Shown here: positions 33,551 through 48,549 of the stretch, in pieces
Layout: each line of letters starts with the position of its first letter
Position numbering within the stretch: position 1 is the first letter of the stretch
Origin: Paludibacteraceae bacterium
Lineage (GTDB): Bacteria > Bacteroidota > Bacteroidia > Bacteroidales > Paludibacteraceae
Direction: 5' to 3'
DNA length: 64,000 bases
Assembly: GCA_017471285.1 (NCBI GenBank)
Contig: JAFUUZ010000026.1
Coordinates: 27-64,026, forward strand
Program-made: the position numbers and the translations under genes
Notes under the pieces: model-generated
Told to the model about the DNA's origin: nothing
Databases searched by the model: none
The model's input: only the letters and a program-made list of their open reading frames with translations

Positions 33551-34876
33551 ATGACAGAGCAAGACATTACCACCTTGACCCCCGTGTACACGAATCCTCG
33601 TGTGCTTGAAGGTCTCGCAATCGTGGCCCACAATCCCTCTACGGGAGACCCGATTGCATTCGATGCCGGCAAGCTTTGCAACACCGCGTTCAAAGACTTG
33701 TCTATGTACACTATCTACGGTGGCTCTCTCGCCAAGCGCGAGACCGCCAACTGCTATGTTATCAAGGAGGCCGGAGCGTATATGTTCCCCCTCGTCTATG
33801 GTAACGCTATCAAGGGCGGCGTAGCCAACCCCAACGCCTACACGAACAACGGTGCGACCTACTCCAACGACTTCGTGAACTCCCGCGATGTGCAAATCAC
33901 CTCGCCCTTCATCGAACTCAACACCGGCTGCGCCGTGGCATCCTGCGAGGTTGTGTGGCAGGACCACCAGGACCTCATTCAGAATCTCGAACTCTACGAA
34001 GGTGGCGACTGCAAGTATGTCCGCTTCATCATTGATTCGATGCCTTCCCTCAACGCAAACGCGATTATCGCGGTCAAGGACGGGTCGGGCAACATTCTGT
34101 GGAGCTGGCACATTTGGTGCTGCCTGGACGACCTTTCGCCTATCACCTTCACCAACCACACCGAGGTCAACTACGACCTTATGCCGATTAACCTCGGTTG
34201 GAAGTGGGATTCTACCGACCGTCTCCGTGGCCGCTCCCCGCACTATCAATGGGGGCGCAAAGACCCGATGCCCTGCCCTGCGGCCTACAACTCCAATAGC
34301 AACACTTCTCTGTGGGGCGCAAAGACCTACGGCTCTGCTGAGGCCGACACTATCGGCGCGGCAATCAAGAATCCGCACCTCTTCTACAAGCAGGACGGTG
34401 AGACCTACTACAATTGGTTTACCGGCGGAAGCAAGTACAATCTGTGGAATGCCGCAGTCACCACGACCGGCGCGGGCGACGACCAAGCCTCGGCCAAAAA
34501 GACTATCTATGACCCCTGCCCCGTCGGGTTTATGCTCCCTGCGGGTCGCGCCTTCACGGGCTTCACTACCTCCGGCGGCAATGTCAGTAGCGGCGCTCCT
34601 ACGGGCTGCGAGGTTATCGGCGAGTGGTCGAACGGTTGGACGATGAAGAAGAATGCCAACGATACTGTCGGTAACTTCTTTGCCGCATCCGGCAGCCGTG
34701 GTAGGACTTCGGGTGCGCTCCTCAATGTTGGCAGCCGCGGCAACTATTGGTCTTTTGCCTCCGATAGCCGGGCTAGCGCTTACCTCTTGCGCTTCGATTC
34801 GAGCAGCCTCTACCCGTTGAACGGCGACCGCCGGGCTTACGGTTTCGCGGTGCGGCCTTGCCGAGAATTATCTTAA
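33551..34876 (+). CDS. DGR target protein 1 (441 aa), C-terminal CLec-type variable domain (DUF1566 / Fib_succ_major-like)
   Basis: The C-terminus ...FAASGSRGRTSGALLNVGSRGNYWSFASDSRASAYLLRFDSSSLYPLNGDRRAYGFAVRPCRE carries VR1. Upstream are DPCPVGFMLPAG and WGRKDP motifs. Confidence 0.9.
   Translation: MTEQDITTLTPVYTNPRVLEGLAIVAHNPSTGDPIAFDAGKLCNTAFKDLSMYTIYGGSLAKRETANCYVIKEAGAYMFPLVYGNAIKGGVANPNAYTNNGATYSNDFVNSRDVQITSPFIELNTGCAVASCEVVWQDHQDLIQNLELYEGGDCKYVRFIIDSMPSLNANAIIAVKDGSGNILWSWHIWCCLDDLSPITFTNHTEVNYDLMPINLGWKWDSTDRLRGRSPHYQWGRKDPMPCPAAYNSNSNTSLWGAKTYGSAEADTIGAAIKNPHLFYKQDGETYYNWFTGGSKYNLWNAAVTTTGAGDDQASAKKTIYDPCPVGFMLPAGRAFTGFTTSGGNVSSGAPTGCEVIGEWSNGWTMKKNANDTVGNFFAASGSRGRTSGALLNVGSRGNYWSFASDSRASAYLLRFDSSSLYPLNGDRRAYGFAVRPCRELS
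34681..34865 (+). repeat. DGR variable region VR1
   Basis: Gap-free 185-nt match to TR 35656..35840. 24 mismatches by hand count, all at TR adenines. Confidence 0.93.
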
Positions 34877-34928: not shown

Positions 34929-35117
34929 TTGCGTATGAAGTCGAAGTTTAACATAAGGCATATTCACAATTCGATAGTCTTTATCTGCGATAGCTCTGAG
35001 GGTGACGAAGTTCTACGAGCAGTCAAGGATTTCGATTTGGCGAACGCTACCCCTATGCAATGCTTCGACTTCTTGCGCAAACTTAAAAACCTCTTCCGAA
35101 AGAATGGAGACGCATAA
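34929..35117 (+). CDS. small ORF (62 aa) between VR1 and avd, function unknown
   Basis: Track ORF that overlaps the avd start by 14 nt. Could be a DGR accessory gene or spurious. Confidence 0.35.
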   Translation: MRMKSKFNIRHIHNSIVFICDSSEGDEVLRAVKDFDLANATPMQCFDFLRKLKNLFRKNGDA

Positions 35118-35454
35118 ACTCAAAGTATATAACCGCGCCCGTCTCTTGTCTGAGCAAATCGTCAAGAGTACGGGTAAAGTGCCTCGCTTCGCGAAGTACA
35201 GTTATGTTGACCCTATGATTGTTTCAGTCTATGGGATAATGGAGTATATCTCATTTGCCAACGATACGCCCGAACAAAGGGTGCAATTCATTGACACCGC
35301 ACTCGCCGCCTTGAATCAACTGAAAATCAAGGTGCGCGTACTGCGTGACTTGAAGTTCGTGACGCAGAAGGGATATGATGCGATAATCCGCGAGGAAGAG
35401 AATGTCACGCGGCAGCTTAACGGTTGGCGAAAAACTACACTCGGTGAACAATAA
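35104..35454 (+). CDS. avd: DGR accessory variability determinant (Avd, four-helix-bundle family)
   Basis: 116 aa from ATG 35104 (METHKLKVYNRARLLSEQIVKSTGKVPRFAKYSYVDPMI...QLNGWRK). The pattern is typical of Avd / 23S-IVS-protein-like bundles. Sits between VR and TR. Confidence 0.8.
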   Translation: METHKLKVYNRARLLSEQIVKSTGKVPRFAKYSYVDPMIVSVYGIMEYISFANDTPEQRVQFIDTALAALNQLKIKVRVLRDLKFVTQKGYDAIIREEENVTRQLNGWRKTTLGEQ

Positions 35455-35655
35455 TCTAACATATCGCATACGGTATAGGCAGAATCCCTACCGTCCCGTG
35501 GTAACGCACGACGGGCTGGGAGCGTCCTTCTTAATTCAGTCCGCCACCTCAACTTTCAGAGGATATGTCAGAAGCGTTCCGGCAACGGGCGTGGAAGTCT
35601 GCTTCATTGCTTGTAACAACATTCAATCCTGCATTCACAAAACGGTGGACTCTGT

Positions 35656-35840
35656 TGCCGCATCCGGCAACCGTAATAGAACTTCGGGTGCGCTCAACAA
35701 TGTTGGCAGCAACGGCAACTATTGGTCTTTTGCCTCCAATAGCCAGGCTAACGCTTACAACTTGAACTTCAATTCGAGCAACCTCAACCCGTTGAACAAC
35801 AACAACCGGGCTAACGGTTTCGCGGTGCGGCCTTGCCGAG
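35656..35840 (+). repeat. DGR template repeat (TR)
   Basis: AAC-rich copy of the VR sequence (reads as ...SGNRNRTSGALNNVGSNGNYWSFASNSQANAYNLNFNSSNLNPLNNNNRANGFAVRPC). Ends 21 nt before the first RT ATG. Confidence 0.93.
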
Positions 35841-35861
35841 CATTGAGAGACCGTGTGCGAT

Positions 35862-37073
35862 ATGTTTTTTCATAGTACGATGAAACACTACACGAGAGAG
35901 GAAATACATCTGTTGGTGACGCAGGGCTATCTTGATGCTCGGCAGAATGAGCGCAGCAAAGGCACTCAGCTTCTGTACGAGATTCACCAAGAGACCAACA
36001 TTGCCGACCTCACCAATGCCTTGTATAACCGCGAGTGGAAACCCGCGCCTCCTATCGTGTTTGTCGTGACTGACCCTACTGTACGCGAGGTCTTTGCGCC
36101 TCAGTTCCCGGATAGGATTGTCAGCCACATCGTCTATTCCTTGTTGTCGCCGCTTTTCGAGCGCCGCTTCATCTACGATTCCTACTCTTGCCGAAAAGGG
36201 AAGGGAACGCTCTTCGGTATAGAGCGCTTCGAGCATCATATCCGAAGCGTGACCGACAACTACAAGTACACCGCCTACATCCTCAACCTGGATATATCGG
36301 GCTACTTTATGAGCATCCACAAGCCTACGCTCTACGACATCATCCATACCACCCTTGACGAGTATGCCGCTCGCGACTGCCGGCCGGGAGTGAAGTGGTC
36401 CGATGTCATAGATTTCGAGTTCTGTGACTATGTTATCCGCCAAATCCTCTTTCGCGACCCGTTGAAGGGAAGTATCTATATGGGCGACCCGAAGCTTCGC
36501 GCCCTCGTGCCGCCACAGAAGCTGCTGCGCAATTCTCCTGCGGACACGGGATTGATTATTGGCGATTTGACCTCGCAACTTTTCAGCAATGTCTATCTCA
36601 ACCCCTTCGACCATTTCGTGAAGAGGGTGTTGCATATCAAGGGCTATGGCCGATATGTTGACGACGGGCGTATGATTCATCGCGACAAGGACTATCTGTT
36701 GGAGTGCAAGGAGCGCTCCACGGTGTTCTTGAAGGAGCGTCTGCGCCTTGTGGTCCACCCGACCAAGACCACCATTACCTCTACGGAAGAGACCAACTTC
36801 TTCCTCGGCGCAGCGATACGGGACTACCGCCGCTATGCCAAGAACGATACTGTCGGCCACTTCCACGAGACTGTGCGCCTCTACGAGAGGGCCATTGAGA
36901 CGGGGGCATACCTTGACCTCCTGGGTATGTACTCGGTGTTGAACTCCTACCTCGGTTACTTTCAGCACTTCAAGGCCAAGACTATCGTGGAGCGCACGCT
37001 GCGCGAATCCCCGGTGTTGAACTACTTTACGCTCACGCCAAACTGCAAGAAAGTTATTCTCAAACCCTTATAA
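35862..37073 (+). CDS. DGR reverse transcriptase
   Basis: GRYVDDG (YxDD catalytic box), LTSQLFSNVYLNPFDHF, and SCRKGKGT upstream. Start is ambiguous (GTG 35853, ATG 35862 or ATG 35880). Confidence 0.92.
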   Translation: MFFHSTMKHYTREEIHLLVTQGYLDARQNERSKGTQLLYEIHQETNIADLTNALYNREWKPAPPIVFVVTDPTVREVFAPQFPDRIVSHIVYSLLSPLFERRFIYDSYSCRKGKGTLFGIERFEHHIRSVTDNYKYTAYILNLDISGYFMSIHKPTLYDIIHTTLDEYAARDCRPGVKWSDVIDFEFCDYVIRQILFRDPLKGSIYMGDPKLRALVPPQKLLRNSPADTGLIIGDLTSQLFSNVYLNPFDHFVKRVLHIKGYGRYVDDGRMIHRDKDYLLECKERSTVFLKERLRLVVHPTKTTITSTEETNFFLGAAIRDYRRYAKNDTVGHFHETVRLYERAIETGAYLDLLGMYSVLNSYLGYFQHFKAKTIVERTLRESPVLNYFTLTPNCKKVILKPL

Positions 37074-37077
37074 CATT

Positions 37078-37497: not shown

Positions 37498-37523
37498 CAC
37501 AGAACATCAAATCAAGAGTAGCT

Positions 37524-37715
37524 ATGGCAATAGACAACACAACTCTCAAAAAGGTAGGATGCTTCTTCGCAAGTTTCGCTTGCATTATTGGAGCAATCGG
37601 CGGTTTTGGCACTTGCGTCGCTCAGCACGAGTGGCCCATTGCAATCTGCATCGTGGTTGTCGCGGGATGCGCCGTGCCAACCGTCGTGAAAATGGTTAAA
37701 TATCTGATTTCGTAG
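37524..37715 (+). CDS. small 2-TM membrane protein (holin/antiholin candidate)
   Basis: 63 aa with FFASFACIIGAIGGFG and IAICIVVVAGCAVPTVV. Position is upstream of the endolysin. Confidence 0.5.
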   Translation: MAIDNTTLKKVGCFFASFACIIGAIGGFGTCVAQHEWPIAICIVVVAGCAVPTVVKMVKYLIS

Positions 37716-37721
37716 TGCGCT

Positions 37722-38234
37722 ATGATTACAACCGTTATATCGCGCTGCTTGACTAAATTAAGTGACGCTATGCAACACATTTGGGCTTGGTTTGCCGCTA
37801 TCGGCCTCTTCATCGTTGACATCTTCGCCGGCCACGCATTCATCGTGAATCTCGTCGTGACGGTCACGATTATGGATGCGATTTGGGGTGTCGCGGTCAG
37901 CTTGAAGAATAAGAAGTTCTTTCTCTCCGAGCTGGCCCGTCAGACGATAGGCAAAATCGCGGTGTACGGTTGTGCGCTCTTCGGTGTCGCCGGTATTGAC
38001 CTCTATGTTCACAATCAGACCGGCCTCGAAATGGCTATCACAACCGCCATTATCGGTGTCGTGATTGTGCTTACCGAACTGTGGTCCTCTTCGGCCTCTA
38101 TGCTGATTCTTTTCCCCGACTTCCCGTTCCTCCGTCTCTTGCAGAAGTCCCTCACGAGTGAAATCGCGAGGAAACTCGGCGTGCCGGAGGAAGAGGTCGC
38201 GGGGATTCTATCTCACAACAGACACAAAAAGTAA
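37722..38234 (+). CDS. multi-TM membrane protein (holin candidate, 170 aa)
   Basis: Four hydrophobic segments and a charged C-terminus. Lies in the lysis module. Confidence 0.5.
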   Translation: MITTVISRCLTKLSDAMQHIWAWFAAIGLFIVDIFAGHAFIVNLVVTVTIMDAIWGVAVSLKNKKFFLSELARQTIGKIAVYGCALFGVAGIDLYVHNQTGLEMAITTAIIGVVIVLTELWSSSASMLILFPDFPFLRLLQKSLTSEIARKLGVPEEEVAGILSHNRHKK

Positions 38235-38239
38235 ATCCT

Positions 38240-38470
38240 ATGACTACTGCACTTATCCAGGGGGAACAGATATTCAGAGTTCCCGTCAGCAATTTCGCCA
38301 TTTCGCCGAGCGCAAGTGGCTACACGCTGAATTATTCCGCAGACGGGGAGAATTTCGATGCTTGGGACGAGGCAACGCCCGCCAACAAGAACGAGATTGT
38401 CACCAACGCGCCTTGCGGTCTTTGGTACAAACTTGTCGGCAACACATCTGATGTGAAGCTGCAATACTAA
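38240..38470 (+). CDS. hypothetical protein (76 aa)
   Basis: Track ORF. Confidence 0.5.
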   Translation: MTTALIQGEQIFRVPVSNFAISPSASGYTLNYSADGENFDAWDEATPANKNEIVTNAPCGLWYKLVGNTSDVKLQY

Positions 38471-38484
38471 GGGAGGGCCGAGCA

Positions 38485-38835
38485 ATGATTGACTTTTCCA
38501 AAAGAGTAACCTCGCAGGAAATGCAGGAAGAGTTGGCGAAGAAGGAAGATACCAACGCTATCCGCCTTCTCGCCATTCGCTCCGACTATCCCAACATTGA
38601 CCTCACGACCGCCACTCTTGCCTCTCTGAGCGAGTGGCTGACCGCAGAGCGTGCAAAGGAGCAGCAGGGCGACTTCGAGCATTATCTGCCCTTCCACGAT
38701 GTTGTCGTCCCCGTCTCACTTGACACGGGCGACTATGCCGTGAGATTCTCCTACGGCGGCAATGATTACGCGGTCTCTGCCGAAGGTCTGCGCATCGCAA
38801 CGCCTTCGGGTTGGAGGCTCGTCAACTCCGAGTAG
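38485..38835 (+). CDS. hypothetical protein (116 aa)
   Basis: Track ORF. Confidence 0.55.
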   Translation: MIDFSKRVTSQEMQEELAKKEDTNAIRLLAIRSDYPNIDLTTATLASLSEWLTAERAKEQQGDFEHYLPFHDVVVPVSLDTGDYAVRFSYGGNDYAVSAEGLRIATPSGWRLVNSE

Positions 38836-38837
38836 CT

Positions 38838-39287
38838 ATGACTGAGAAAGTGACTATGAACATTTCTCGCAATTTCACTTTCGCGGAGTTCGAGGAATCT
38901 CCGACTGCAAAGGCGAAGGGCATCGTGAATGTCATTAACACCTTCGAGATTCGGGATTCTATCGTCGCACTTGTCCGTGATGTCCTGCAACCTCTGCGGG
39001 ACATCTACGGTAAGCCGATGAAGGTCAATTCCGGCTACCGATGCCCCGAACTCAACGCTGCCGTTGGAGGTGTCGCCACCTCTCAGCACACGAAGGGCGA
39101 AGCTGCCGACATCCACACGGGCAGCGAGGCGGAATCCTACCGCCTGGCGAAACTCGCAAAGGATGCCAAGCTGCCCTACGACCAGCTTATCCTCTATCCG
39201 ACTTTCGTCCACATCAGCCACAAGCTGAAAGGCGAGCAGAGACAGAGGATTCTCTACAACTCGTCCTATCGGGGAAAGAAATTCTAA
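38838..39287 (+). CDS. endolysin, peptidase M15 (zinc D-Ala-D-Ala carboxypeptidase-like) family
   Basis: NSGYRCPELNAAVGGVATSQHTKGEAADI matches the SGYR..LN...GG...SQH..G.A.D signature. Trimmed to ATG 38838. Confidence 0.85.
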   Translation: MTEKVTMNISRNFTFAEFEESPTAKAKGIVNVINTFEIRDSIVALVRDVLQPLRDIYGKPMKVNSGYRCPELNAAVGGVATSQHTKGEAADIHTGSEAESYRLAKLAKDAKLPYDQLILYPTFVHISHKLKGEQRQRILYNSSYRGKKF

Positions 39288-39293
39288 TACTGA

Positions 39294-39322
39294 GGGGCGG
39301 GCTTCGGTCCGCCTCTTCTTTT
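39294..39322 (+). terminator. intrinsic terminator after the endolysin gene
   Basis: 9-bp GC stem (two G-T pairs) closing a TTCG tetraloop, followed by TTCTTTT. Confidence 0.65.
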
Positions 39323-39326
39323 GCCT

Positions 39327-39917
39327 ATGAAGAAGATTATTATTTGGATTCTTGTCGTGGCCGCGCTCATTGCTGCGGCATATTTTGTTGGGGACAGACG
39401 GGGGTATAACAGAGCGATGAATGGCTTTGAAGAGAAGCGCGACACCGTGACGGTGATAAAGTGGCGCAAAGACCCGAAGCCCTCGCTTATCTCAGAGATT
39501 ACCCTTCCTCAGCTTCCGTACTATGTGTTCTTTACCGTGCGCGACACCGTGAACGGCGAGCCGGTTGTTGTGAAGGATTCCGTGGCCGTAGGAATGGTGC
39601 AGAGGGAGTTTGGGGACAGTACCTATACCGCGTGGGTTAGCGGCCCGCAGATAGGCGAATATGGCCCGCAGTTGGATAGCATAGAGCAAGCCGTACCCGT
39701 CAAGTATATCACATCCTATATCACGCCGAAGGTGCGGCCCAATAGCATTTTCGTTGACGCGAGCGCCATATACGACAAAAGCCCGTTCCTCCCGCTCACC
39801 GTGAACTACGGCTACGAGAAAAACGGGCTAATGCTCTACGGGGGCGGAGGCTATGATTTCCTCACGAAATCCCCGGTTGTGCGTGTCGGTTTTCGGTGGA
39901 AGCCTTTTACTTGGTAG
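39327..39917 (+). CDS. N-terminally anchored protein (196 aa), possible spanin/lysis accessory
   Basis: MKKIIIWILVVAALIAAAYF signal-anchor. The C-terminus ends ...VGFRWKPFTW (aromatic terminal residue). Confidence 0.5.
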   Translation: MKKIIIWILVVAALIAAAYFVGDRRGYNRAMNGFEEKRDTVTVIKWRKDPKPSLISEITLPQLPYYVFFTVRDTVNGEPVVVKDSVAVGMVQREFGDSTYTAWVSGPQIGEYGPQLDSIEQAVPVKYITSYITPKVRPNSIFVDASAIYDKSPFLPLTVNYGYEKNGLMLYGGGGYDFLTKSPVVRVGFRWKPFTW

Positions 39918-40257
39918 GCTCTGAGAGCGGGATTTTCGGACCGTAGGAGCGAAGCGCATCCGCGTATTCCTGGGCCGCTCTCTGCAAGCCGGCAAGCTTG
40001 CTCTCTACATAGTCGCTTCTGAGCCGCTCCTGCTTCCGCTTGGCGGCATCAATGGAGAAGAGGATATGTTCGTCGTAATACCCCTTGCAGTATTCCGCAT
40101 CGGGCGCGACATTCCGCTCTCGCATTGGGTGGCTCGCGAAAGATACAAGGAGGTCCTTACCGTCACTCTTGCGGACGGAGTGGACCTTCTCTTCTTTGAT
40201 GCTGCTTGCGGTCACGATATAGACGACCGAAGCGAGATTCAGTTCTGATGCTTTCAT
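39907..40257 (-). CDS. hypothetical protein (116 aa), last gene of the leftward block
   Basis: Track ORF. Confidence 0.55.
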   Translation of the reverse strand: MKASELNLASVVYIVTASSIKEEKVHSVRKSDGKDLLVSFASHPMRERNVAPDAEYCKGYYDEHILFSIDAAKRKQERLRSDYVESKLAGLQRAAQEYADALRSYGPKIPLSEPTK

Positions 40258-40487
40258 TTCTCCAACTCCTGCATCTTATTCATAAGCGCGAGCGACGCAA
40301 GCGCCATAGCAACTTCATCCTTTTGTTCCTCGAACGCATCTATGCTCACCTCCACGCTTTCGGCCTCTTTTACGGCCTTTGTAGCGTCGTCAAGCATCTT
40401 GCGCTCGTCACCTTTGGCTTTCATTTTGAGAAGGGCGGCGATACCGTCAACCACCTCTTCTTCGATAGCTACAACAATCTTTACCAT
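40254..40487 (-). CDS. hypothetical protein (77 aa)
   Basis: Track ORF 40254..40643 trimmed to ATG 40487 (MVKIVVAIEEE...) to remove the overlap with 40502..40990. Confidence 0.5.
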   Translation of the reverse strand: MVKIVVAIEEEVVDGIAALLKMKAKGDERKMLDDATKAVKEAESVEVSIDAFEEQKDEVAMALASLALMNKMQELEK

Positions 40488-40501
40488 ATTGCTTTTGTGG
40501 A

Positions 40502-40990
40502 TTAAACGGGTTTTGCTCCGCGCACCTTCTCCCACTCGCTTTCTGTTATGACATATCGGCAACAGTTGCAAGTGTGGATGAAGGTCGGGAACGGAATTGT
40601 GTGTATGACCTCCGCGACTTGAATCATACCGCAACGCGGGCATTTGATGTATTCGAGGTGCGATGCAGAAGGCTTCCTCTGCAACGCAAGGTCGTGAAGA
40701 TACTGTCTGATGTCGTCGGGCGTTTTCAGTTTGCGGCCCTCATAGGTGATGATGTCTCCGTACTGCACAACGCCGAGAAGGACGCGCTCTGTGCCGATGC
40801 CGTGATACCAGGCGAGTTGTTTGATGCCACGGATGCGGCAACGGAACTTGGTAATCTCGCCGTGACGCATCGGGAACACAATATGGTTGCGAAGGATATG
40901 CTCTACGGTCTCCCAAGTCCTCGCGTTTTCTTCTGCGACTTGCGTAGAGACGCTCTCGTATATAGCGTCTATTATGTCCTGCATTTCCAT
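40502..40990 (-). CDS. zinc-finger-containing hypothetical protein (162 aa)
   Basis: CPRCG...CNCC near the C-terminus. Confidence 0.6.
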   Translation of the reverse strand: MEMQDIIDAIYESVSTQVAEENARTWETVEHILRNHIVFPMRHGEITKFRCRIRGIKQLAWYHGIGTERVLLGVVQYGDIITYEGRKLKTPDDIRQYLHDLALQRKPSASHLEYIKCPRCGMIQVAEVIHTIPFPTFIHTCNCCRYVITESEWEKVRGAKPV

Positions 40991-40993
40991 AGG

Positions 40994-41191
40994 CTACATA
41001 TTTTGCATTTTGGTCTCATATTCGATAACAAGTTTCTCGGCCTCTCGTCTATCCGCGTATGCGGTCTGAAAGCGCCTCTTGTCTCGCTTCGAGTTCGCGG
41101 CATACTTGCCACGCCCGTCTCGGTCCTTTGGCGCTACGAGGTGGCACGGGATAATCTCGTAGCGATGTACGGCATAGAAGAGTTGTCTCAT
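40994..41191 (-). CDS. hypothetical protein (65 aa)
   Basis: Track ORF. Confidence 0.5.
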   Translation of the reverse strand: MRQLFYAVHRYEIIPCHLVAPKDRDGRGKYAANSKRDKRRFQTAYADRREAEKLVIEYETKMQNM

Positions 41192-41352
41192 TTCAGATAG
41201 ATGTTTGCGGCCTCACGCTCGCATTCTTCCAACATTTTGTCGCGGAGGAATAGCCGCCGCTTCGATTTCTCAATAGCAACGGCCATTTCCTCTTGCGACA
41301 GTTCTGCAAGGTCGCCTACGGTGAGGTCCTCGGAATCAAGGTTTCGTGGCAT
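41188..41352 (-). CDS. micro-ORF (54 aa)
   Basis: Hand-read: MPRNLDSEDLTVGDLAELSQEEMAVAIEKSKRRLFLRDKMLEECEREAANIYLK. ATGA overlap with 40994..41191 and starts 2 nt after the stop of 41355..41681. Below the track size cut-off. Confidence 0.45.
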   Translation of the reverse strand: MPRNLDSEDLTVGDLAELSQEEMAVAIEKSKRRLFLRDKMLEECEREAANIYLK

Positions 41353-41354
41353 TA

Positions 41355-41681
41355 TCACGCCTCCTTGTATTCTTCAATGAGGACGACCTTACTGTAAATG
41401 TAGGTCCGTTGGAGCGAACGGCCACCCGTTTTCTTGTCCTTGAACAGAATCGGGGTGATTTCCGTACCTTCCCAACGGAGTTCGTAGCCGCCGAGCCAAG
41501 CGACAATCTCGCGGGTAGCACCGTAGTGGTCCTTCGTGACGACGCGCACCTTCTTGTCAATGAGGGTTTGGTCGGCATTGTCCGCGATATACTGCTTCTT
41601 GGCTTCGGCCAGCTCTGCGTCAAGTTCCGCCTTGCGGCGCTTGATGTCGGCTACCTTCGCCTTGAAATCTTCCTTCGTCAT
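41355..41681 (-). CDS. hypothetical protein (108 aa)
   Basis: Track ORF. Confidence 0.6.
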   Translation of the reverse strand: MTKEDFKAKVADIKRRKAELDAELAEAKKQYIADNADQTLIDKKVRVVTKDHYGATREIVAWLGGYELRWEGTEITPILFKDKKTGGRSLQRTYIYSKVVLIEEYKEA

Positions 41682-42556
41682 AGCGTTGGCGGTGTCGGGA
41701 AGTCAAGGTAGGTCTCCACGAACTCACGGGCAATAACCTTCTTGCACTTGAAGGGAGACGCTGAGAGCGTGGTAGCCTCTTCGATGATAGTATTCTCCGT
41801 GCCGGCGAGTTTCAGCCAATCAATGCACTTCTCCTTCGCCTCGTCAGCATCGTCTGCTTCCACGAGGAATGCTTGCTTGCCGGAAGTGATAGTGTCGGAC
41901 TGTCCTGCGGTCTTGGAGACCTCGCGGGAGGTGACATACAAGGAAATCTCGTAGTATCTGATTTCCTTCTTGACCTCTTCCTCGTCGTCGCTAAGCTCTT
42001 CGGCCGGCTTCGGCTCTTCTTCGGGGAAGAGAGGCTCTTCCTTCACGATTGCCTCGCCCGCTTTGAGTTTCGTGAACTCCTGCTTGTCGCGGTTGAGGAT
42101 AGTGCCGCAATCCAGCTCGCCGATAGAGAGGAACTTGAAGTCGTACTTCTCCGTCAGTTCGATGTAGTCCGCGATAATGGCCTTCGCCATATCAATGTTG
42201 GTGGCCTGGCAGACATACTTGTACTTCTTGTCGCTGATAACCACCTTCGCGGCATAGACCTTCAACCAAGCGCTTTCACGCTCAGCGCAAAGTCTGCATT
42301 GGTCGGAGACCTTGATGCCTTCAAGTTCTTTGGATTCGAGGTAGAAGGCTACGGAATCCACATTCTGCTCGTCAATCTTCGTTCCACGGGAGAAGAGGAC
42401 CTCTGAGCGCTCAATAGTAGTCTCCTTGCCCGTCGCTTCGTCAACGAAAGTCTCGGCCCAACGGCGGCACGCATTTTCGGCCACATACTTGCCGAACATT
42501 TCCTCCGTCGTCGTGGCAAGGATGATGTTTTCGGTCTTTCTTGTTTGGATGTTCAT
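41678..42556 (-). CDS. hypothetical protein (292 aa) with an acidic linker
   Basis: Track ORF. No motif recognised. Confidence 0.7.
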   Translation of the reverse strand: MNIQTRKTENIILATTTEEMFGKYVAENACRRWAETFVDEATGKETTIERSEVLFSRGTKIDEQNVDSVAFYLESKELEGIKVSDQCRLCAERESAWLKVYAAKVVISDKKYKYVCQATNIDMAKAIIADYIELTEKYDFKFLSIGELDCGTILNRDKQEFTKLKAGEAIVKEEPLFPEEEPKPAEELSDDEEEVKKEIRYYEISLYVTSREVSKTAGQSDTITSGKQAFLVEADDADEAKEKCIDWLKLAGTENTIIEEATTLSASPFKCKKVIAREFVETYLDFPTPPTL

Positions 42557-42582
42557 AAATTCTGAGGTTTAAGTGGAATACC

Positions 42583-42607
42583 CCGCGCCCTTCGAGATAG
42601 GGCGCGG
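42583..42607 (-). other. GC hairpin downstream of DGR target 2
   Basis: 8-bp stem CCGCGCCC/GGGCGCGG with a 9-nt loop and no U-tract. Lies in the gap 42557..42620. Confidence 0.35.
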
Positions 42608-42620
42608 AGCAGAAAAGGCT

Positions 42621-43226
42621 TTAATTTAATTCTCGGCAAGGCCGCACCGCGAAACCGTAAGCCCGGCCGTTGTTGCCCAACGGGTAGAGGTCGCTCGAAT
42701 AGAAGCCCAAGTAGTAAGCGTTAGCCTGGCTATCGGAGGCAAAAGACCAATAGCGGCCGTAGCTGCCAACATTGGTGAGCGCACCCGAAGCGCTAACACG
42801 GTAGCCGGAGGCTGGTAGGAAGATAGAGTTGCCATTAGGACCGACGACATCGTAGCCCTTCTTGTCAGAGTTCCAGGTCCACTTGCACTCTTCTACGAGT
42901 TCCGCGATAGCGACCGCTTTCGGAAGGAATTTGCCGAAGATGTCAACGGCCTCGTAGTGCGTGTAGTAGTCGGGCGCATTCTCTGTGGCCCACAGTCGGC
43001 CCGAAGGGAGGCCGAGGTCAACATACTTGAAGGCATCGGGATTGAAGGTTTCCTTCGTCAGCTTATTGGGATTGGCCTTCTTTTCGGGCCGCTCCGAAAT
43101 ACTGATGTCAGACACCTCCATACCCTCCGTATCTTCAACCATTTCGTTGAACAATTCCTCAATGTAGGAATCGCTCTTCTCTCCAAAAATATCGTTGGAG
43201 AGGTCAAGTTCGATAGTTACTTTCAT
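42621..43226 (-). CDS. DGR target protein 2 (201 aa), same CLec-type variable C-terminus
   Basis: ...FLPASGYRVSASGALTNVGSYGRYWSFASDSQANAYYLGFYSSDLYPLGNNGRAYGFAVRPCREL carries VR2. The N-terminus is acidic with no signal peptide. Confidence 0.88.
   Translation of the reverse strand: MKVTIELDLSNDIFGEKSDSYIEELFNEMVEDTEGMEVSDISISERPEKKANPNKLTKETFNPDAFKYVDLGLPSGRLWATENAPDYYTHYEAVDIFGKFLPKAVAIAELVEECKWTWNSDKKGYDVVGPNGNSIFLPASGYRVSASGALTNVGSYGRYWSFASDSQANAYYLGFYSSDLYPLGNNGRAYGFAVRPCRELN
42632..42812 (-). repeat. DGR variable region VR2 (remote, opposite strand)
   Basis: The reverse complement aligns gap-free to TR 35660..35840. 22 mismatches by hand count, all at TR adenines. Confidence 0.9.
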
Positions 43227-43402
43227 TTTCCTTTCTTGAATTTACCGAGGTGATTTTTTCTGAGGTAGCGCTTGTGCGTCTTGGAGGATGCGCGATAGAG
43301 ACCGTAGGCTTCGACATCGCCGAGATGCTCCTTGACAATCGGCATCATACCGCCGTAGTCCGGCATAAGATAGGGATAGGTTTTACCCCCCCCCCGTGCC
43401 AT
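43223..43402 (-). CDS. small basic protein (59 aa) translationally coupled to DGR target 2
   Basis: ATG 43402 (MARGGGKTYPYLMPDYGG...). Its stop overlaps the target-2 ATG (ATGA at 43226..43223). The reading frame passes through the G10 tract. Confidence 0.45.
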   Translation of the reverse strand: MARGGGKTYPYLMPDYGGMMPIVKEHLGDVEAYGLYRASSKTHKRYLRKNHLGKFKKGK

Positions 43403-43475
43403 TTTCCTGCGCAAAGAGCGCAGCAAGCGCCGCAAACAGACCGATGCGCCGCTTCAAAGTGGATGTTCCTTTCAT
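43383..43475 (-). CDS. 30-aa signal-peptide-like ORF ending just after the G10 tract
   Basis: Hand-read MKGTSTLKRRIGLFAALAALFAQENGTGGG then stop. Loss of one G would fuse it in frame to 43223..43402. Confidence 0.35.
   Translation of the reverse strand: MKGTSTLKRRIGLFAALAALFAQENGTGGG
43386..43395 (-). repeat. homopolymer G10 (C10 on the + strand)
   Basis: Counted directly in the sequence. Confidence 0.95.
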
Positions 43476-43486
43476 ATGGATGTTGG

Positions 43487-43993
43487 TTAGAGATTTCTGC
43501 GGTGCGCGAACTCTGCGAGTAGGGTCGCGTCAACCTTATTGTCGTCAATGTTCTTGCACCTCGGATTGCGGCGGAAGTCCTCATAGGGAAAGAGGCGCTT
43601 GGCCGCGTTGATAGAGGTGTTCTTGGTGTCAACCATTTTCTTCCCGTCGTGCTTGTATCGGTAAACCTTGTCCTCCGTAATCCATATCTCATTCTGCCAT
43701 TGCTTAGGCTGAACGAGGTGGTACGGGAAGCCGTAGGCTATGATAAGCCCTTTGAGGAATCCGAAGGTCTCGCCGAAGGAGAATGTGGCCTTCGCGGAAC
43801 TGCCGAAGATTGCGTGAACTTCCTCCATTACGCAGACGAATTTATCCTGCGGGCGGAGGGAGAATTTGGCAAAGAAGGCGGCAATCTCGCGAGGGTCGTG
43901 TTCCGACAAGGCGAAATACTCGTTGATTCCGTCCTCGGAGCGGACGCAGATGTAGCCGATGCTGCCGGGGTCTATCGCGATATAGTATTTCAT
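43487..43993 (-). CDS. RuvC-like Holliday junction resolvase
   Basis: N-terminal YIAIDPGS, then VMEEV and a late NKVDA acidic residue. This is the pattern of phage RuvC-fold resolvases. Confidence 0.65.
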   Translation of the reverse strand: MKYYIAIDPGSIGYICVRSEDGINEYFALSEHDPREIAAFFAKFSLRPQDKFVCVMEEVHAIFGSSAKATFSFGETFGFLKGLIIAYGFPYHLVQPKQWQNEIWITEDKVYRYKHDGKKMVDTKNTSINAAKRLFPYEDFRRNPRCKNIDDNKVDATLLAEFAHRRNL

Positions 43994-44232
43994 TCTACTT
44001 CGTCAAGGGCCGCACGCATACCTTCGATGAAGGCATAGTCGGGCAGGGATTTGTCGTACACTTCCAGCTCGGCGCTCACGATGCGCTTGCACGCTTCGAT
44101 GCGCCCGCGTCTGTCAAGGACGATAGTGGAGTTGAGCATATCTGCGACCTGGTTTTGAAGGTCAATGGTGCGGGGCTTGTGTTCCGCATTCTGAGGGGCG
44201 CAGTAGGACTGCGTAAATTCTTGAATAGTCAT
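43990..44232 (-). CDS. hypothetical protein (80 aa)
   Basis: Track ORF. Confidence 0.55.
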   Translation of the reverse strand: MTIQEFTQSYCAPQNAEHKPRTIDLQNQVADMLNSTIVLDRRGRIEACKRIVSAELEVYDKSLPDYAFIEGMRAALDEVE

Positions 44233-44399
44233 ACCTTTTTGTGTTCTACTTTCTTGATACTATATACAGAGACGAGAACAAAGCCTCGGCCCGTATCTAC
44301 TTGGAGGGTAAGATTATCAACGACACCGACGATGATTCCCGATGTTGGTCCGTTGACGCATTCCCACCAAATACGGTCTCCGAATTGCAATTGTTCCAT
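44229..44399 (-). CDS. micro-ORF (56 aa)
   Basis: Hand-read MEQLQFGDRIWWECVNGPTSGIIVGVVDNLTLQVDTGRGFVLVSVYSIKKVEHKKV. ATGA overlap with 43990..44232. Confidence 0.45.
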   Translation of the reverse strand: MEQLQFGDRIWWECVNGPTSGIIVGVVDNLTLQVDTGRGFVLVSVYSIKKVEHKKV

Positions 44400-44463
44400 A
44401 GTGCCTTACATTTGAGAGCGTGGAGCGGGGCGCAAGCCACCGCAGCCCGAAATAGAAAATGTG

Positions 44464-44688
44464 TCATTGCTTGAACTTGAAGCACTCGCAGCATTTCTCG
44501 CAGCCGGAGCGCTTCTCTTCCCAATGATAGCAGTAACCCTTCCACAGACGATTCTCCCAATAGTCACACTCTTCGCAAGCGTGGTCGAAAGTGTCGTCTT
44601 GTGCGAGGTAGAATACTGCCGCAATAAACGCGGCAATCACGATGAAAAACACGAGTGCTGCTATGAGCAGCATTGCTGCGACAATCAT
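44464..44688 (-). CDS. TM-anchored Cys-rich protein (74 aa)
   Basis: N-terminal MIVAAMLLIAALVFFIVIAAFIAAVF, then CEECD...CEKCCEC. Confidence 0.55.
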   Translation of the reverse strand: MIVAAMLLIAALVFFIVIAAFIAAVFYLAQDDTFDHACEECDYWENRLWKGYCYHWEEKRSGCEKCCECFKFKQ

Positions 44689-44864
44689 TGTATTCTGTCT
44701 TTATTGATTGGCTTTGAACTGAGCGGGCAAGTCCGCATATCTGCAATCCAACACCCGCTCTGATTACACTTGTGGCGGGATTGCTGCGTCTTAGAATCGA
44801 ATTTCAGCACGCGAAAGTTGCAACCCTTGCAATCTTCGCTGCTCTTATTTCGTGGAGGTATCAT
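44685..44864 (-). CDS. micro-ORF (59 aa), Cys-rich
   Basis: Hand-read MIPPRNKSSEDCKGCNFRVLKFDSKTQQSRHKCNQSGCWIADMRTCPLSSKPINKDRIQ. ATGA overlaps at both ends. Confidence 0.4.
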   Translation of the reverse strand: MIPPRNKSSEDCKGCNFRVLKFDSKTQQSRHKCNQSGCWIADMRTCPLSSKPINKDRIQ

Positions 44865-45301
44865 ATCTTGTTGCGTTCGCGGAAGTTGAAACGGGCGATG
44901 TCCTCTGCCGAGAAGAGGCCACCTTCGGGGAGTTCTGTGAGGAACTTGACTACGGCATCGTATGCTTCATAAGTCCCCGTGCGGTCAAGGTAGAGCATCA
45001 GAATCTGCACGAGTTCGTTGCTCTCGGCGCGGAATCCGTCAAGGCGCTTCCAATTGCCCTCTGCGGCCTCAATGAAATCTTCATCAAGGCCGCACTTCTC
45101 GTACCACAGAAGTGTCTCTTTTACCTTCTGCGTGAAGATTCCGTAGTTGCGCTTGCGCTCCTGCTTGAATCCGCCAAGCGGCCTCAGATGAAGCGCAATG
45201 TCGTTATACAGAATATCAATCGAAAAGGCGAGGGCGTTAGCGAGGCGAAGCTGCTGCCCGATTATCTTGGTGGCCTCAGCGACCCTTTCTTCTTGTGTCA
45301 T
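44861..45301 (-). CDS. hypothetical protein (146 aa)
   Basis: Track ORF. Confidence 0.6.
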   Translation of the reverse strand: MTQEERVAEATKIIGQQLRLANALAFSIDILYNDIALHLRPLGGFKQERKRNYGIFTQKVKETLLWYEKCGLDEDFIEAAEGNWKRLDGFRAESNELVQILMLYLDRTGTYEAYDAVVKFLTELPEGGLFSAEDIARFNFRERNKI

Positions 45302-46407
45302 TACTTCCCAATGAGAATAGGCATCAGAAGGAGCGTGCAGGGGTCAGCCTCCGCATCCTGCGGGATAAGGAGAGCCGCACGCCGCTCGTCAGCGAGTTTC
45401 ACAATGACATCCTTGCTGCCGATGATACCGAGGGCCTTCATCAGCACTTCGCTCTTGAATCCGATAGAGATAGGCGTGCCTTCGTACCGCACACCAGGTA
45501 CGGTTTCCGTGGCAGCAAGGGCGAATCCGAAGTCCTGGGCCTCGGCCTTGAAGATTTCCTGCGAAATCGTCAGACGGATAGCGCCCGTGGACTTGTTGGC
45601 GCAAGTGGAGACGCGGTTGACAGATTCCATAAGCACCGCTCTGTTGGCGATAGCGACATTGGCGTTGCCGGTCGGAATCACGGCGGAATACTTCGGGAAC
45701 TTGCCTTCGAGCGTGCGGCAGGAGATAGTCACATCGCCGAAGCAGAATGCAATATTCTTCTCGTCTGCGAGGATTGCCACATCGCCCTCCTTGTTGAGCG
45801 CGGAATTGATAGTGGCGGCGGCAGAGGACGGGATGATGATTTGGCGCGGGTCGGAGCATCCGACGGGAATCGGGTACACGGACATAATCTTGGCATCCGT
45901 GGCAACGAAGTTCGTCTTGTTGGCTTGCGCATCCAGGAGGATGCCCGTAAGCGCCGGCCGCAGCTTGTCGTCTTTCTCCACGCACGGCAGCGTATGGTCG
46001 AACGCAGCCCGCAGGACCTTCTGAGGAATAACGATAAGGCTATTCTCAGCACCGGGGATTGCAACGACGGGGTAATCCTCCACGGGGAAGGTGGGAATGA
46101 CGGAGTTACCGAAGCCCCAATCAATCACGGCTTCCTTGTCCTCTGTGGTAATAGTGATGTCAATGTCGGGACAGACCTTGACGATGTTGAGGAAGTCACG
46201 CGCCATAACCGCCATACGGCCCTCGCACTCCGCATCCGTGGCGCAGACGATAGTCACGCTCGAATCAGAGGCGGTAATGGTGAGGCGATTGTCTCGGCTT
46301 TCCAAGAGGAAGGTTTCGAGAATTGGGAGGGACGATTTGCCGGGAATGGCTTTGATAGCGAGTGAGAGTGCTTTGGCGAGCGCCCTCGAATTGATTTTGA
46401 TATTCAT
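45301..46407 (-). CDS. dnaN: DNA polymerase III beta sliding clamp
   Basis: 368 aa. The N-terminus ...LAKALSLAIKAIPGKSSLPILETFLLESRDNRLTITASD is typical of DnaN. Length fits three clamp domains. Confidence 0.8.
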   Translation of the reverse strand: MNIKINSRALAKALSLAIKAIPGKSSLPILETFLLESRDNRLTITASDSSVTIVCATDAECEGRMAVMARDFLNIVKVCPDIDITITTEDKEAVIDWGFGNSVIPTFPVEDYPVVAIPGAENSLIVIPQKVLRAAFDHTLPCVEKDDKLRPALTGILLDAQANKTNFVATDAKIMSVYPIPVGCSDPRQIIIPSSAAATINSALNKEGDVAILADEKNIAFCFGDVTISCRTLEGKFPKYSAVIPTGNANVAIANRAVLMESVNRVSTCANKSTGAIRLTISQEIFKAEAQDFGFALAATETVPGVRYEGTPISIGFKSEVLMKALGIIGSKDVIVKLADERRAALLIPQDAEADPCTLLLMPILIGK

Positions 46408-46425
46408 AACAGTTGTGGTTGTTGT

Positions 46426-48549
46426 CTAAAATGGAAGGTCGTCAATATCTTCGATTGCTTGCTCCGGCTCTTCGGGGGTCTCGTCGGAGTTCTCTACCCA
46501 CCCCATAGGCTGAGTGGTGTCGAACACTTCGGGGAGGTCGTCAATGCGAGTATCTTCCTGCCACCCGTAGATGATATGTTCCGCAGCGTCATTCTTGTAC
46601 CGGCGCGAAGGCTTGTCGTAGTACAGTCCGATAAGGTGGTCCTTGATGCCGAATGCGCGATTCTTGCAGACCTCTATCACGGAATCGTACTTCTCGAACT
46701 CTTCGATTGTCGGAGCGCCGAAGAAGTCTTTTGCGCGGCGCTTGAAGTCGCGACCGACGCGGTGGATGATGAAGCAGTTGTCGGCAAGGTTGGTGAGGTC
46801 CGCCGTACCCGAAATGGATTCCATTCGCAGAAGCTGGAAGCCCTGCTCCTTTCGGGGGTGGCAGACGAGAACGATGTGAACATTCTCCCGCTTCGCGTAG
46901 TCTTTGAGGTCATTGATGAATCCCGTCTGACGGTCATTCTTCTCGCCGTAGTAGTTGTCAAGCTGCAACGCCATAAGGTTGTCAACGACGAGAAGCTGAG
47001 CGCCCGTGGTTTTCACGCACTCTTTGATGTCGGCGAAGATTTGGCTGAACTTGTTGCCATACTCGTTGTTGTAGAGGTAAATCTTGCCTTCGAGCCAACG
47101 GTTGATTTGGTCGCAGATTTCCTTCGGGGCGTAGTATAGACCGTCATAGCCTTCCTTAGCGCGAACGAAGTTCGGTCCTGCGGCCATTTGGTCCAACCAC
47201 GACTGAAAGCGGAAGTCCTGCAACTCGCCGGACCATACTGCGGAGACATAGCCTCGCTGAGCGGCATTGAGCAGAAAGAAGTCAATTACAGAGGTCTTGC
47301 CCGCGCCGGAGATACCCGATATGATTGTCACATCGCCCATAATCAGCCCCATAACCTTCTTGTCAAGGGCGACTATGCCGGTTGGGATTGCCACAAGCTG
47401 AGACGGGTCGCGAAACGCGATGTCTGTCATTTGCAGCCACTTCTTGCCTTTCTCCTTGCTCTCGCCCTCAATCTTGATAGGCAACTGCTGAATCTGCGCG
47501 GTCTTGCCGTAGTAGGACTGCTTGTGCTGAAACTCCTTGTAGTCCCGTTGGTCGTAGGCTTGCGGGTCGAATTTGAGCCGCACATCGCGCCAGGTGTACT
47601 GTTGGCAGGAGTGGTGGAGGCACTTGAATCCGATTGCCCCGCTATCCATTACGAAGAGGGCGCTATCGGGCGCTTTGTGGTCCGAACAGAAGGGACACTC
47701 ATTGAGGACAAGCTTCTCGCCGCCGGAGAATTTCACGCGCTTCGCAATGCCAATGCCGTGCTGCGTGACGAAACTCTCTATGTCGAACTTCTCGGCTGAG
47801 TAACCGTTGAATCTGCTTGGCCGCTCCTGCTGAGGAAGCATCGCCGCCACCTTCTCGAAGTATTCGTTAGGTGTCGGTTTGATTTCTTCGGGTACGCTGA
47901 CGATTGTCGAAAGGCGTTGCGGGCGGTCGGGCGAATTGACACCCTTGCGCGAGACGCAGCCGTAGAGTTTGCAGATGCGGTTGGGGTCGTGCGGAGCGCA
48001 GTCAATGTGTGCGCCACCGGCGGAGAAGAGCATATCCAGGACTTGAAGAAACCTCTTCATCGTCTCGGTGTTCTTTTCCGTGTTCGCCATATTCTGACGA
48101 ATCAGCAGATGCACGCCGTTTCCCGAAAGGCAGACCACGGGAGGCGTGAAGCCTTCGTCGCGGAGGAACTTGCAGACATTGTTGGCGACGACCTTCGCGG
48201 TCTCCACCTCAGCATCCGAGGCGTTTGTGCCGGCCGGCCGCACAACATCAATGTCTATCAGACACCAATCGCGGCCAACGATGTCGCCCGCAGATGTCGA
48301 AATCGCTCCGAGTTGGAGGCGGTCACGCTGAATGCGGTTGTAGCACGCTTCGTTGATGCGATTGAGCGTGAAGTATATTTGGCAGTAATCATACGGCGCT
48401 ATGGCCGCAAGGATTGTCTCTACATCCGTGAAGTAGCCCGAATAGATTTTCTTTCCGTTGCGTGCCGAAGGGTCAATGACGCGAATCTCCACCAACTCGT
48501 GATTGGCTTTGAACACATTGTACCACATTCGGATGATATTCGCTTCCAT
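46426..48549 (-). CDS. bifunctional primase-helicase (T7 gp4 / DnaB-like SF4 helicase C-terminal half)
   Basis: Zinc motif CPFCSDHK...CLHHSC, Walker A ISGISGAGKTS, and a RecA-type core (LLVVDNLMAL, VLVCHPRK). Confidence 0.8.
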   Translation of the reverse strand: MEANIIRMWYNVFKANHELVEIRVIDPSARNGKKIYSGYFTDVETILAAIAPYDYCQIYFTLNRINEACYNRIQRDRLQLGAISTSAGDIVGRDWCLIDIDVVRPAGTNASDAEVETAKVVANNVCKFLRDEGFTPPVVCLSGNGVHLLIRQNMANTEKNTETMKRFLQVLDMLFSAGGAHIDCAPHDPNRICKLYGCVSRKGVNSPDRPQRLSTIVSVPEEIKPTPNEYFEKVAAMLPQQERPSRFNGYSAEKFDIESFVTQHGIGIAKRVKFSGGEKLVLNECPFCSDHKAPDSALFVMDSGAIGFKCLHHSCQQYTWRDVRLKFDPQAYDQRDYKEFQHKQSYYGKTAQIQQLPIKIEGESKEKGKKWLQMTDIAFRDPSQLVAIPTGIVALDKKVMGLIMGDVTIISGISGAGKTSVIDFFLLNAAQRGYVSAVWSGELQDFRFQSWLDQMAAGPNFVRAKEGYDGLYYAPKEICDQINRWLEGKIYLYNNEYGNKFSQIFADIKECVKTTGAQLLVVDNLMALQLDNYYGEKNDRQTGFINDLKDYAKRENVHIVLVCHPRKEQGFQLLRMESISGTADLTNLADNCFIIHRVGRDFKRRAKDFFGAPTIEEFEKYDSVIEVCKNRAFGIKDHLIGLYYDKPSRRYKNDAAEHIIYGWQEDTRIDDLPEVFDTTQPMGWVENSDETPEEPEQAIEDIDDLPF

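Follow-up and report, generated by a model that had tools for sequence, protein, structure and literature searches.

A diversity-generating retroelement (DGR) in the genome of a Bacteroidales phage very probably has a second active target, in a lectin-like protein that is encoded within the phage's replication operon. We analyzed a stretch of 64,000 nucleotides from a Paludibacteraceae bacterium (contig JAFUUZ010000026.1 of assembly GCA_017471285.1, positions 27 to 64,026), which we will term the window. The gene in question, which we will term T2, ends in a variable repeat (VR2) that corresponds to the DGR's template repeat (TR). A first variable repeat (VR1) lies in the gene T1, next to the DGR cassette. 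These features are:

T2 (target 2): 42621..43226, minus strand; 201 amino acids, with an acidic N-terminal segment of 65 residues and then a predicted stand-alone C-type-lectin-like domain.
VR2: 42628..42812, minus strand; the remote repeat, on the opposite strand, 6.8 kb from TR and 5.55 kb past the end of the reverse transcriptase (RT) gene.
TR: 35655..35845, plus strand; 3' end of the TR type (...CCGAG-CATTG).
VR1: 34680..34870, plus strand; adjoins the cassette and includes the invariant homing core (26 nt); its 3' end is of the VR type (AATTA).

The original prediction, made by reading the sequence, was that VR2 aligns to TR without gaps and with 22 mismatches, all at template adenines. 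A computed alignment gives exactly this result. The reverse complement of 42632-42812 matches TR 35660-35840 with zero indels, and 22/22 mismatches (11 A>G, 7 A>T, and 4 A>C, relative to TR) are at TR adenines. As this segment of TR has 47 adenines in 181 nt, the chance that every mismatch would fall on an adenine is about 1.3e-13. Three non-A mismatches (at TR 35656, 35657, and 35659) lie outside the aligned segment, just 5' of it, and mark the 5' edge of the homing tract. VR1 shows the same pattern: at 34685-34865 (offset from TR by −975 nt), it has 24 mismatches to TR, and all 24 are at adenines. A repeat finder independently recovered both pairs (VR1 as direct repeat D1 and VR2 as inverted repeat I2).

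Because the adenine changes differ between the two VRs, we agree with the proposal that they were rewritten independently. Among the 47 TR adenines, 14 are altered in both VRs, 10 are altered solely in VR1 and 8 solely in VR2, and 15 are unaltered; just 6 of the 14 co-mutated sites have the same replacement base in VR1 and VR2. Over 212 nt, the two VRs are 83% identical. There are exactly three copies of the 27-mer ACGGTTTCGCGGTGCGGCCTTGCCGAG in the window, one each in VR1, TR, and VR2, and none in shuffled sequences. So, the claim that the last 27 nt are identical in all three repeats is correct within the window, but in a relative (L004) the leading A of this 27-mer (TR 35814) has changed. 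Because of this mutation, we take the invariant core to be 26 nt.

If VR2 were no longer a target, it might be invariant across related genomes, but we found the opposite: VR2 is hypervariable at the codons that correspond to TR adenines. We examined four sibling assemblies (L004, L005, its equivalent L006, and L007, which is ENA ERZ27247122). The T2 genes of L004, L005/L006, and L007 are about 99% identical to that of the window, and VR2 differs at many TR-A sites. Each sibling's VR2 has its own set of substitutions, all at TR-adenine positions. (TR itself is nearly identical between the window and L007, with 2 differences.) In the reading frame of the VRs, TR contains 14 AAC and 4 AAT codons, for a total of 18 Asn codons, and 44 of the 47 adenines in 35660-35840 are at codon positions 1-2. 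We compared 17 natural variants of the T2 protein. Residues 1-137 are nearly invariant, with 8 sporadically variable columns, while all 18 of the Asn-templated positions are hypervariable, with 3-8 residue types each. More broadly, 22/27 codons with an A at position 1 or 2 vary, as compared to 1/37 A-free codons. The A-free exception is P138/A, which arises because the longer 5' homing tract of L005 copies the TR sequence TTGCCGCA. That is, L005/L006 carry TR-derived TTGCCGCA (L005 10411-10417) where the window has TACCAGCC (42813-42817), and this shift of the homing boundary turns Pro138 into Ala. A variable 5' boundary of homing has been reported before, and the P138/A case fits that report (Wu et al., 2018, PMC5758913). 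On the tail side, natural variants of T1 (n = 14) vary only at the Asn-codon sites of VR1. Both targets appear to be actively diversified in natural populations.

VR2 also has the signals expected of a DGR target. Directly 3' of the core, both VRs read ...CCGAG-AATTA and TR reads ...CCGAG-CATTG. This is the expected distinction between the initiation of mutagenic homing sequence (IMH) and IMH*, and we regard the end of VR2 as a putative IMH. The VR-type versus TR-type 3' end (A versus C after ...CCGAG) is kept in 5/5 lineages examined. Downstream of T2 there is a potential secondary structure:

GC-rich hairpin/cruciform: 42583..42607, minus strand; 13 nt past the stop codon of T2; CCGCGCCCT-ATCTCGA-AGGGCGCGG.

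This hairpin has a 9-bp GC stem and a 7-nt loop (DNA fold z = −3.3). By analogy, it would correspond to the hairpin/cruciform element of the Bordetella phage BPP-1, in which the structure of the stem rather than its sequence is important and targeting is independent of orientation (PMC3240598). We surveyed 16 distinct sequences, from different phages, that lie downstream of VRs of this DGR type. Perfect stems of 8-12 bp, beginning 10-14 nt after the stop codon, were present in 10 of the 16 (versus 0.23% of shuffled sequences), and another four had the same stem with one mismatch. Only 2/16 were degenerate, and these were VR1 of the window and VR1 of L007. The sequences of the stems vary among lineages while their offset past the stop stays equal. 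In the window, the sequence beyond VR1 (GGCGAGC-GTTTTAA-GCGAGCC, at 34891-34911) has a stem that is broken by tandem G.A mismatches, and VR1 is still diversified across the siblings. We also considered whether the hairpin after VR2 could be an intrinsic terminator, and we rejected this because no T run follows the stem and a terminator scan does not flag it.

The two-target architecture recurs. T2 homologs are remote DGR targets in four other phage lineages, and in the three whose gene context was determined (all but L013) they lie beside genes for replication or transposition. No TR was found within 10 kb on either side of 18 T2 homologs; the TRs of these lineages lie farther off, and searches of IMG/VR with the homing core particular to each lineage located them. 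In L008, L011, L017, and L018, whose helicases are 49-54% identical to that of the window, the T2 homolog follows the helicase at a distance of a few hundred bases. In IMGVR_UViG_3300037512_000559, VR1 and TR are spaced by 966 nt and a remote VR on the opposite strand lies in a T2 homolog, beside a helicase. A Mu-like phage (IMGVR_UViG_3300037512_000973) has three copies of the repeat, and the remote one is in a T2 homolog that closes the transposition/early block; in this lineage, the gene comes after a virion-morphogenesis (Mu G-like) gene. In two 46.7-kb phages (IMGVR_UViG_3300032007_000144 and 3300028886_000143), the remote VR is in a T2 homolog that lies one small open reading frame (ORF) downstream of a 1036-amino-acid primase-like protein. 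In all of these lineages, mismatches in the homologous tract fall on TR adenines, and TR has a C where the VRs have an A after ...CCGAG.

Some of these phages have other informative features. In the 46.7-kb phages (L166/L169 and L167/L168), the adjacent VR differs from TR at only 3-5 adenines and is identical in both contigs, while the remote VR is heavily diversified and differs between them. Because the remote VR is diversified and the adjacent VR is nearly unmutated, the remote target appears to be the more active one in these phages. L009 and L010 are Mu-like, Hankyphage-style transposable Bacteroidales phages of 36-40 kb (with a transposase, MuB, Mu F, and a Mu-type portal), and their T2 homolog is a remote DGR target at the end of the early block. 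To our knowledge, publications on Hankyphage describe only a VR in the tail fiber. Finally, in IMGVR_UViG_3300031993_000166 (L161-L163, 43.4 kb), the homing core is present four times, as TR and three VRs, one of which is in a T2 homolog.

Could VR2 have acquired its differences without being an active target? It could be a dead relic, if duplication or recombination once placed a copy of the VR1-bearing 3' end in an unrelated gene and the DGR has since ceased to mutate that copy. Mismatches at A sites in a single genome cannot separate past activity from present activity, and one sibling does carry a frameshifted copy. However, the comparison between genomes refutes this idea: 17 near-identical genomes have differing VR2 sequences, with the variation confined to TR-adenine codons. 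Also, VR2 retains an intact homing core, VR-type 3' end, and hairpin, the two-target layout is kept in phages with quite diverged helicases, and in the 46.7-kb lineage it is the remote VR that is more diversified. We consider a relic to be extremely improbable. The chance is similarly slight that retrohoming is not the cause and that VR2 instead differs between genomes because of ordinary point mutation under diversifying selection or gene conversion with VR1. The identity between the two VRs makes recombination conceivable, but the changes are limited to TR adenines and go toward all three other bases, while synonymous and A-free sites are unaltered. Gene conversion between the VRs is also unable to make new bases at A sites, and it does not account for so few co-mutated sites sharing a base. 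Thus, we rejected both a relic copy and conversion between the VRs.

A few observations do weigh against an active VR2. That mutagenesis is ongoing within one population is inferred from differences between assemblies. In L007, VR2 (10421-10549) lacks 1 nt near its 5' end, and this deletion cuts T2 to 182 amino acids; either T2 is dispensable or lost in that phage, or this is an assembly error in a hypervariable region. And VR1, which is diversified, has no clean hairpin, so the hairpin may be dispensable in this element. Overall, the proposal that one RT and one TR serve two targets in trans is well supported, as the window contains just a single RT, Avd, and TR, and the two targets share the homing sequence and the 3' end and are both hypervariable.

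The placement of T2 was described as unusual for a phage DGR target. It is uncommon, but it is not new: layouts with two targets, the second of which is in a module other than the tail, have already been published. Non-adjacent targets were found for 45/372 DGRs, and prophages gave "many examples" with one adjacent and one non-adjacent target (Wu et al., 2018, PMC5758913). Another survey, which was unable to detect remote targets, assigned viral targets mostly to tail proteins (Roux et al., 2021). In Quimbyvirus, one target follows the tail fiber genes and a second is distant and on the opposite strand (Benler et al., 2021, PMC8008677). As in the window, two C-type-lectin targets are served by one TR, and the second is off the structural module and on the opposite strand; unlike in the window, the RT is split over three frames. 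The neighbors of the second target also differ (methyltransferases, a nuclease, and a tRNA ligase in Quimbyvirus, versus a helicase, a clamp, and a resolvase for T2). The authors of that study viewed the second target as a non-structural protein that is involved in phage-host conflict (PMC8008677).

The Bacteroides uniformis phages Bacuni_F1/F4 (Hedzet et al., 2021, PMC8143477; MT635598.1) also have two DGR targets, one of which is distant. Like the phage in the window, these are Bacteroidales siphoviruses with one Avd-TR-RT cassette, an adjacent target after the tail genes, and a distant target. The repeat occurs at 22557, 35187, and 35891 of MT635598.1, and the remote target is a lectin-like, 224-amino-acid DUF1566 protein that is separated from the upstream DNA polymerase A by one small ORF and also adjoins methyltransferases and primase, that is, a replication module. 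On the other hand, the window has no relatedness to Bacuni at the DNA level, and Bacuni's remote target is on the same strand as TR. The proteins have a weak likeness (a YWS...A..L core, E = 0.005), which places them in different subfamilies. The Bacuni authors viewed both targets as fimbrial-tip-like proteins that affect host range (PMC8143477). In Toutatisvirus, the second VR gene is 17.5 kb from TR and was taken to be a receptor-binding protein (bioRxiv 10.1101/2024.10.15.618418); this system differs from ours in that the targets are DUF6273 lectin-like proteins and the host is a Firmicute (Faecalibacterium). A tblastn search of GenBank phages with T2 gave no match except for one 4-kb fragment.

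The prototype DGR, that of BPP-1, resembles that of the window in its adenine-specific mutagenic retrohoming, its AAC-rich template codons, the location of the VR at the C terminus of a C-type-lectin fold, the IMH at the VR's 3' end that differs from the TR copy, and the downstream hairpin/cruciform. Targeting in BPP-1 operates in trans as well as being independent of orientation (PMC3240598; PMC5758913). However, BPP-1 has a single target, the tail-fiber protein Mtd, which is beside the cassette, whereas the window has a second target in another operon and on the other strand, and its lectin subtype is FISUMP/DUF1566-like rather than Mtd-like. Finally, cellular DGRs with multiple targets, such as the TvpA family of Treponema denticola and LdtA of Legionella, are similar to the window in that one RT and TR serve several distant VRs. 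The proteins that are diversified by these cellular systems usually bear signal peptides or lipoprotein signals, but T2 does not.

What kind of protein is T2? From its modeled structure, T2 is a stand-alone C-type-lectin-like (FISUMP/DUF1566-like) domain. The AlphaFold2 model (built with 70 homologs) has a mean predicted local distance difference test (pLDDT) score of 86, and residues 55-200 are above 89. The best match to the model in the PDB is the C-terminal domain of Legionella Lcl (8q4e), followed by C-type lectin-like receptors, and the best matches in BFVD are phage proteins that are annotated with a FISUMP (Fibrobacter succinogenes major paralogous) domain. Two results argue against this assignment. 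The template modeling scores (TM-scores) of the structural matches are modest (0.3-0.5), and scans of T2 against Pfam, NCBIfam, PHROGs, and PADLOC gave no match (for Pfam-A and NCBIfam, not even at E ≤ 10). A sequence-profile search of the PDB with the T2 family also had no match. Precomputed annotations of close relatives of T2 list PF26707 (DUF8237) only as "faint" or "weak," and our literature search found no paper that mentions DUF8237.

The membership of T2 in a wider superfamily rests on the fold matches and on a profile search, whose 14,163 hits at E ≤ 1e-10 (each a cluster representative) are headed by very large multi-repeat proteins. In GTDB, the T2-type domain is found throughout metagenome-assembled genomes of Bacteroidales from animal guts. 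Close homologs of T2 are mostly 138-163 amino acids, which is the bare domain, and the N-terminal extensions of T2 homologs vary (none, 45, 65, or 140 amino acids). The 18 randomized Asn-templated positions lie in the C-terminal third of the lectin-like domain. We considered a conserved disulfide as a sign of an extracellular location, but the second cysteine (C196) is replaced by S, A, or V in many homologs, and we rejected this.

T2 (MBR1473124.1) was correctly described as a protein of 201 amino acids with an acidic N terminus and no signal peptide. Its isoelectric point is 4.6, and the first 50 residues have an isoelectric point of 4.05, with 15 D/E versus 5 K/R. There is no hydrophobic segment in the whole sequence and hence no evident signal peptide or membrane anchor. 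The description of T2 as lying about 5.5 kb beyond the RT, on the other strand, and among resolvase, clamp, and helicase genes was also right, and these genes have now been identified:

Small ORF upstream of T2: 43223..43435, minus strand; its stop codon overlaps the start codon of T2 by 4 nt (ATGA).
Upstream part of the same operon: 43487..48549, minus strand; RuvC-like resolvase, sliding clamp, and DnaB-like primase/helicase.
RuvC-like resolvase: 43487-43993, minus strand.
Sliding clamp: 45301-46407, minus strand.
DnaB-like primase/helicase: 46426-48549, minus strand.
p292, the downstream neighbor of T2: 41678..42556, minus strand; 292 amino acids; phrog_35807, E = 1.9e-38.

The 4-nt overlap (ATGA) suggests that T2 is probably translationally coupled to the small upstream ORF. 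At this place, relatives of the phage have shorter gene calls, of 47-77 amino acids, that overlap the start of T2. The operon upstream of T2 also carries ERF and a PD-(D/E)XK nuclease. Downstream of T2 are phrog_35807 and small genes without known functions, and the operon converges on the lysis genes; when the small genes near T2 were scanned against PHROGs and PADLOC, nothing informative emerged. A homolog of p292 is directly downstream of the T2 homolog in L008 too. Residues 17-69 of p292 resemble the beta subunit of Bacteroidetes RNA polymerase (PDB 9n9p_C residues 232-284, profile E = 8e-6; 8dkc_C, 0.039). Possibly, p292 mimics a fragment of the host's RpoB. The AlphaFold2 model of p292 (from 4 sequences) has a pLDDT of 50, which is too poor for a fold search. 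By location, in the replication operon between the resolvase and phrog_35807, T2 does not look like a tail fiber or a receptor-binding protein, and it has no tail match in PHROGs. That T2 is "not obviously a virion protein," as was noted, fits with the missing signal peptide, the probable coupling within the operon, and the placement of its homologs in other lineages.

We propose the following mechanism. The TR RNA would be reverse-transcribed with adenine-specific errors, and the cDNA would replace the 3' ends of two genes, both of which close in the 26-nt homing core and AATTA. The target in T1 adjoins the cassette, while the target in T2 would be reached in trans, 6.8 kb off and in the opposite orientation. 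T2 would be a small, soluble protein that is made in the cytoplasm and is cotranscribed with genes for replication and recombination.

As for the function of T2, we tentatively favor an early-expressed binder that is not part of the virion and whose variable face tracks a polymorphic factor of the host or of a competitor, in counter-defense or host takeover. We favor this because, in Bacuni_F1 and in three of the four other lineages, the equivalent gene adjoins replication machinery that is not homologous, because many homologs are bare domains, because there is no export signal, and because of the probable translational coupling. The same placement is harder to reconcile with T2 being an accessory receptor-binding or adhesion protein that binds glycans on the host's surface, either docked on the virion via its N-terminal segment or released by lysis: in three other lineages and in Bacuni_F1, the replication or early-gene target is accompanied by a separate tail-side target. 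Also, many homologs (138-141 amino acids) would have no anchor, T2 has no signal peptide, and coupling to an ORF of the early operon is likely. Nevertheless, an adhesin is possible, albeit somewhat doubtful, and several observations that weigh against an intracellular binder point to it. The superfamily consists mostly of tandem arrays in very large proteins, and secreted and surface proteins are where FISUMP/DUF1566-like domains typically occur. Lcl, the best PDB match and a solved relative of T2, is an extracellular adhesin. T2 shares its randomized, TR-templated scaffold and its domain class with the tail-side T1 (56% identity across the last 94 amino acids). In the Mu-like lineage, the gene is preceded by the Mu G-like morphogenesis gene. 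Also, the N-terminal extensions that differ among homologs recall the modular anchors of receptor-binding proteins, and the Bacuni authors annotated their remote target as a putative fimbrial tip protein. If T2 is an adhesin, then the phage gains a second, independently diversified specificity.

Returning to the early-expressed binder, a more general idea, which we think is unlikely but worth stating, is that T2 and its homologs form a class of small, cytoplasmic, DGR-diversified, antibody-like binders of Bacteroidales phages that are expressed with replication or early genes. The lectin face of such proteins might, if this rather speculative idea is taken further, track intracellular host factors (such as defense proteins or RNA polymerase) or factors from competing phages. 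This idea is supported by the recurrent placement beside a DnaB-type helicase, a 1036-amino-acid primase, Mu-type transposition genes, or (in Bacuni) PolA, and by the RpoB-like segment in the conserved neighbor. If it is correct, then hypermutation by DGRs serves counter-defense or host takeover besides adsorption. Phage DGRs are usually explained as switching the specificity of tail fibers. Here, population data support a case in which the same cassette also diversifies a small protein that lacks a signal peptide and is encoded among replication genes. That homologs are similarly positioned in several unrelated lineages of Bacteroidales phages lends weight to a suggestion made for Quimbyvirus, namely that certain phage DGR targets have roles outside the tail. 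The 17 natural variants, the defined library of 18 positions, and the conserved target signals provide material for a direct test.

The remaining parts of the DGR are as follows:

T1 (target 1): 33551..34876, plus strand; 441 amino acids; directly follows the gene for a 2428-amino-acid tail protein and has a FISUMP-like C terminus with VR1.
Avd (accessory variability determinant): 35104..35454, plus strand; the frame is open from a GTG at 35002, and the probable start is the ATG at 35104, as called in L007.
DGR RT: 35853..37073, plus strand; the probable start is the ATG at 35880.

T1 (MBR1473108.1) matches the FISUMP family TIGR02145 at residues 293-435 (E = 3.7e-7, 31 bits versus a cut-off of 41.65). 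It is preceded by a tape-measure gene and then by the 2428-amino-acid ORF (25964-33250, plus strand), which has several matches to tail and tail-fiber PHROGs. Avd matches phrog_3206 ("Avd protein of DGR," E = 3.9e-13) and exceeds the cut-off of PF05635; its match to PF22296 (bAvd; E = 1e-7, 32.8 bits) is under that family's cut-off of 40. The RT matches PF00078 (E = 2.5e-10, above the cut-off) and phrog_1423 (E = 3.4e-77), and it has the DGR-type motif IGDLTSQ at residue 236 and YVDD at residue 268. On the basis of these motifs and family matches, the RT is predicted to belong to the DGR clade. The most similar RTs in GenBank are from phage DGRs, at 30-36% identity. Thus, Avd-TR-RT at 35.1-37.1 kb is a canonical DGR. 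A 157-amino-acid ORF lies over TR (35402-35875, plus strand) and is called as a gene in relatives (17121-17594 in L007); this is most likely a spurious call across the non-coding template.

Because the sibling contigs are 63.8-64.6 kb and the contig of the window, which NCBI bins in a Paludibacteraceae metagenome-assembled genome, is 64,465 nt, the window is nearly the whole genome, of roughly 64.4 kb, of a temperate tailed phage of Bacteroidales. It encodes a terminase, a portal, a major capsid protein, and an integrase. A megablast search of GenBank phages with positions 33000-48600 of the window and an exact search of IMG/VR with the window's 27-nt homing sequence both gave zero matches, and the relatives of this phage were obtained via protein searches. 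We found no paper in the literature that ties LoVEphage to Quimby. The large subunit of the terminase (TerL) is 34% identical to TerL of LoVEphage-type Bacteroides phages. Besides the primase/helicase of the T2 operon, the window has a second primase-like gene at 6356-7711.

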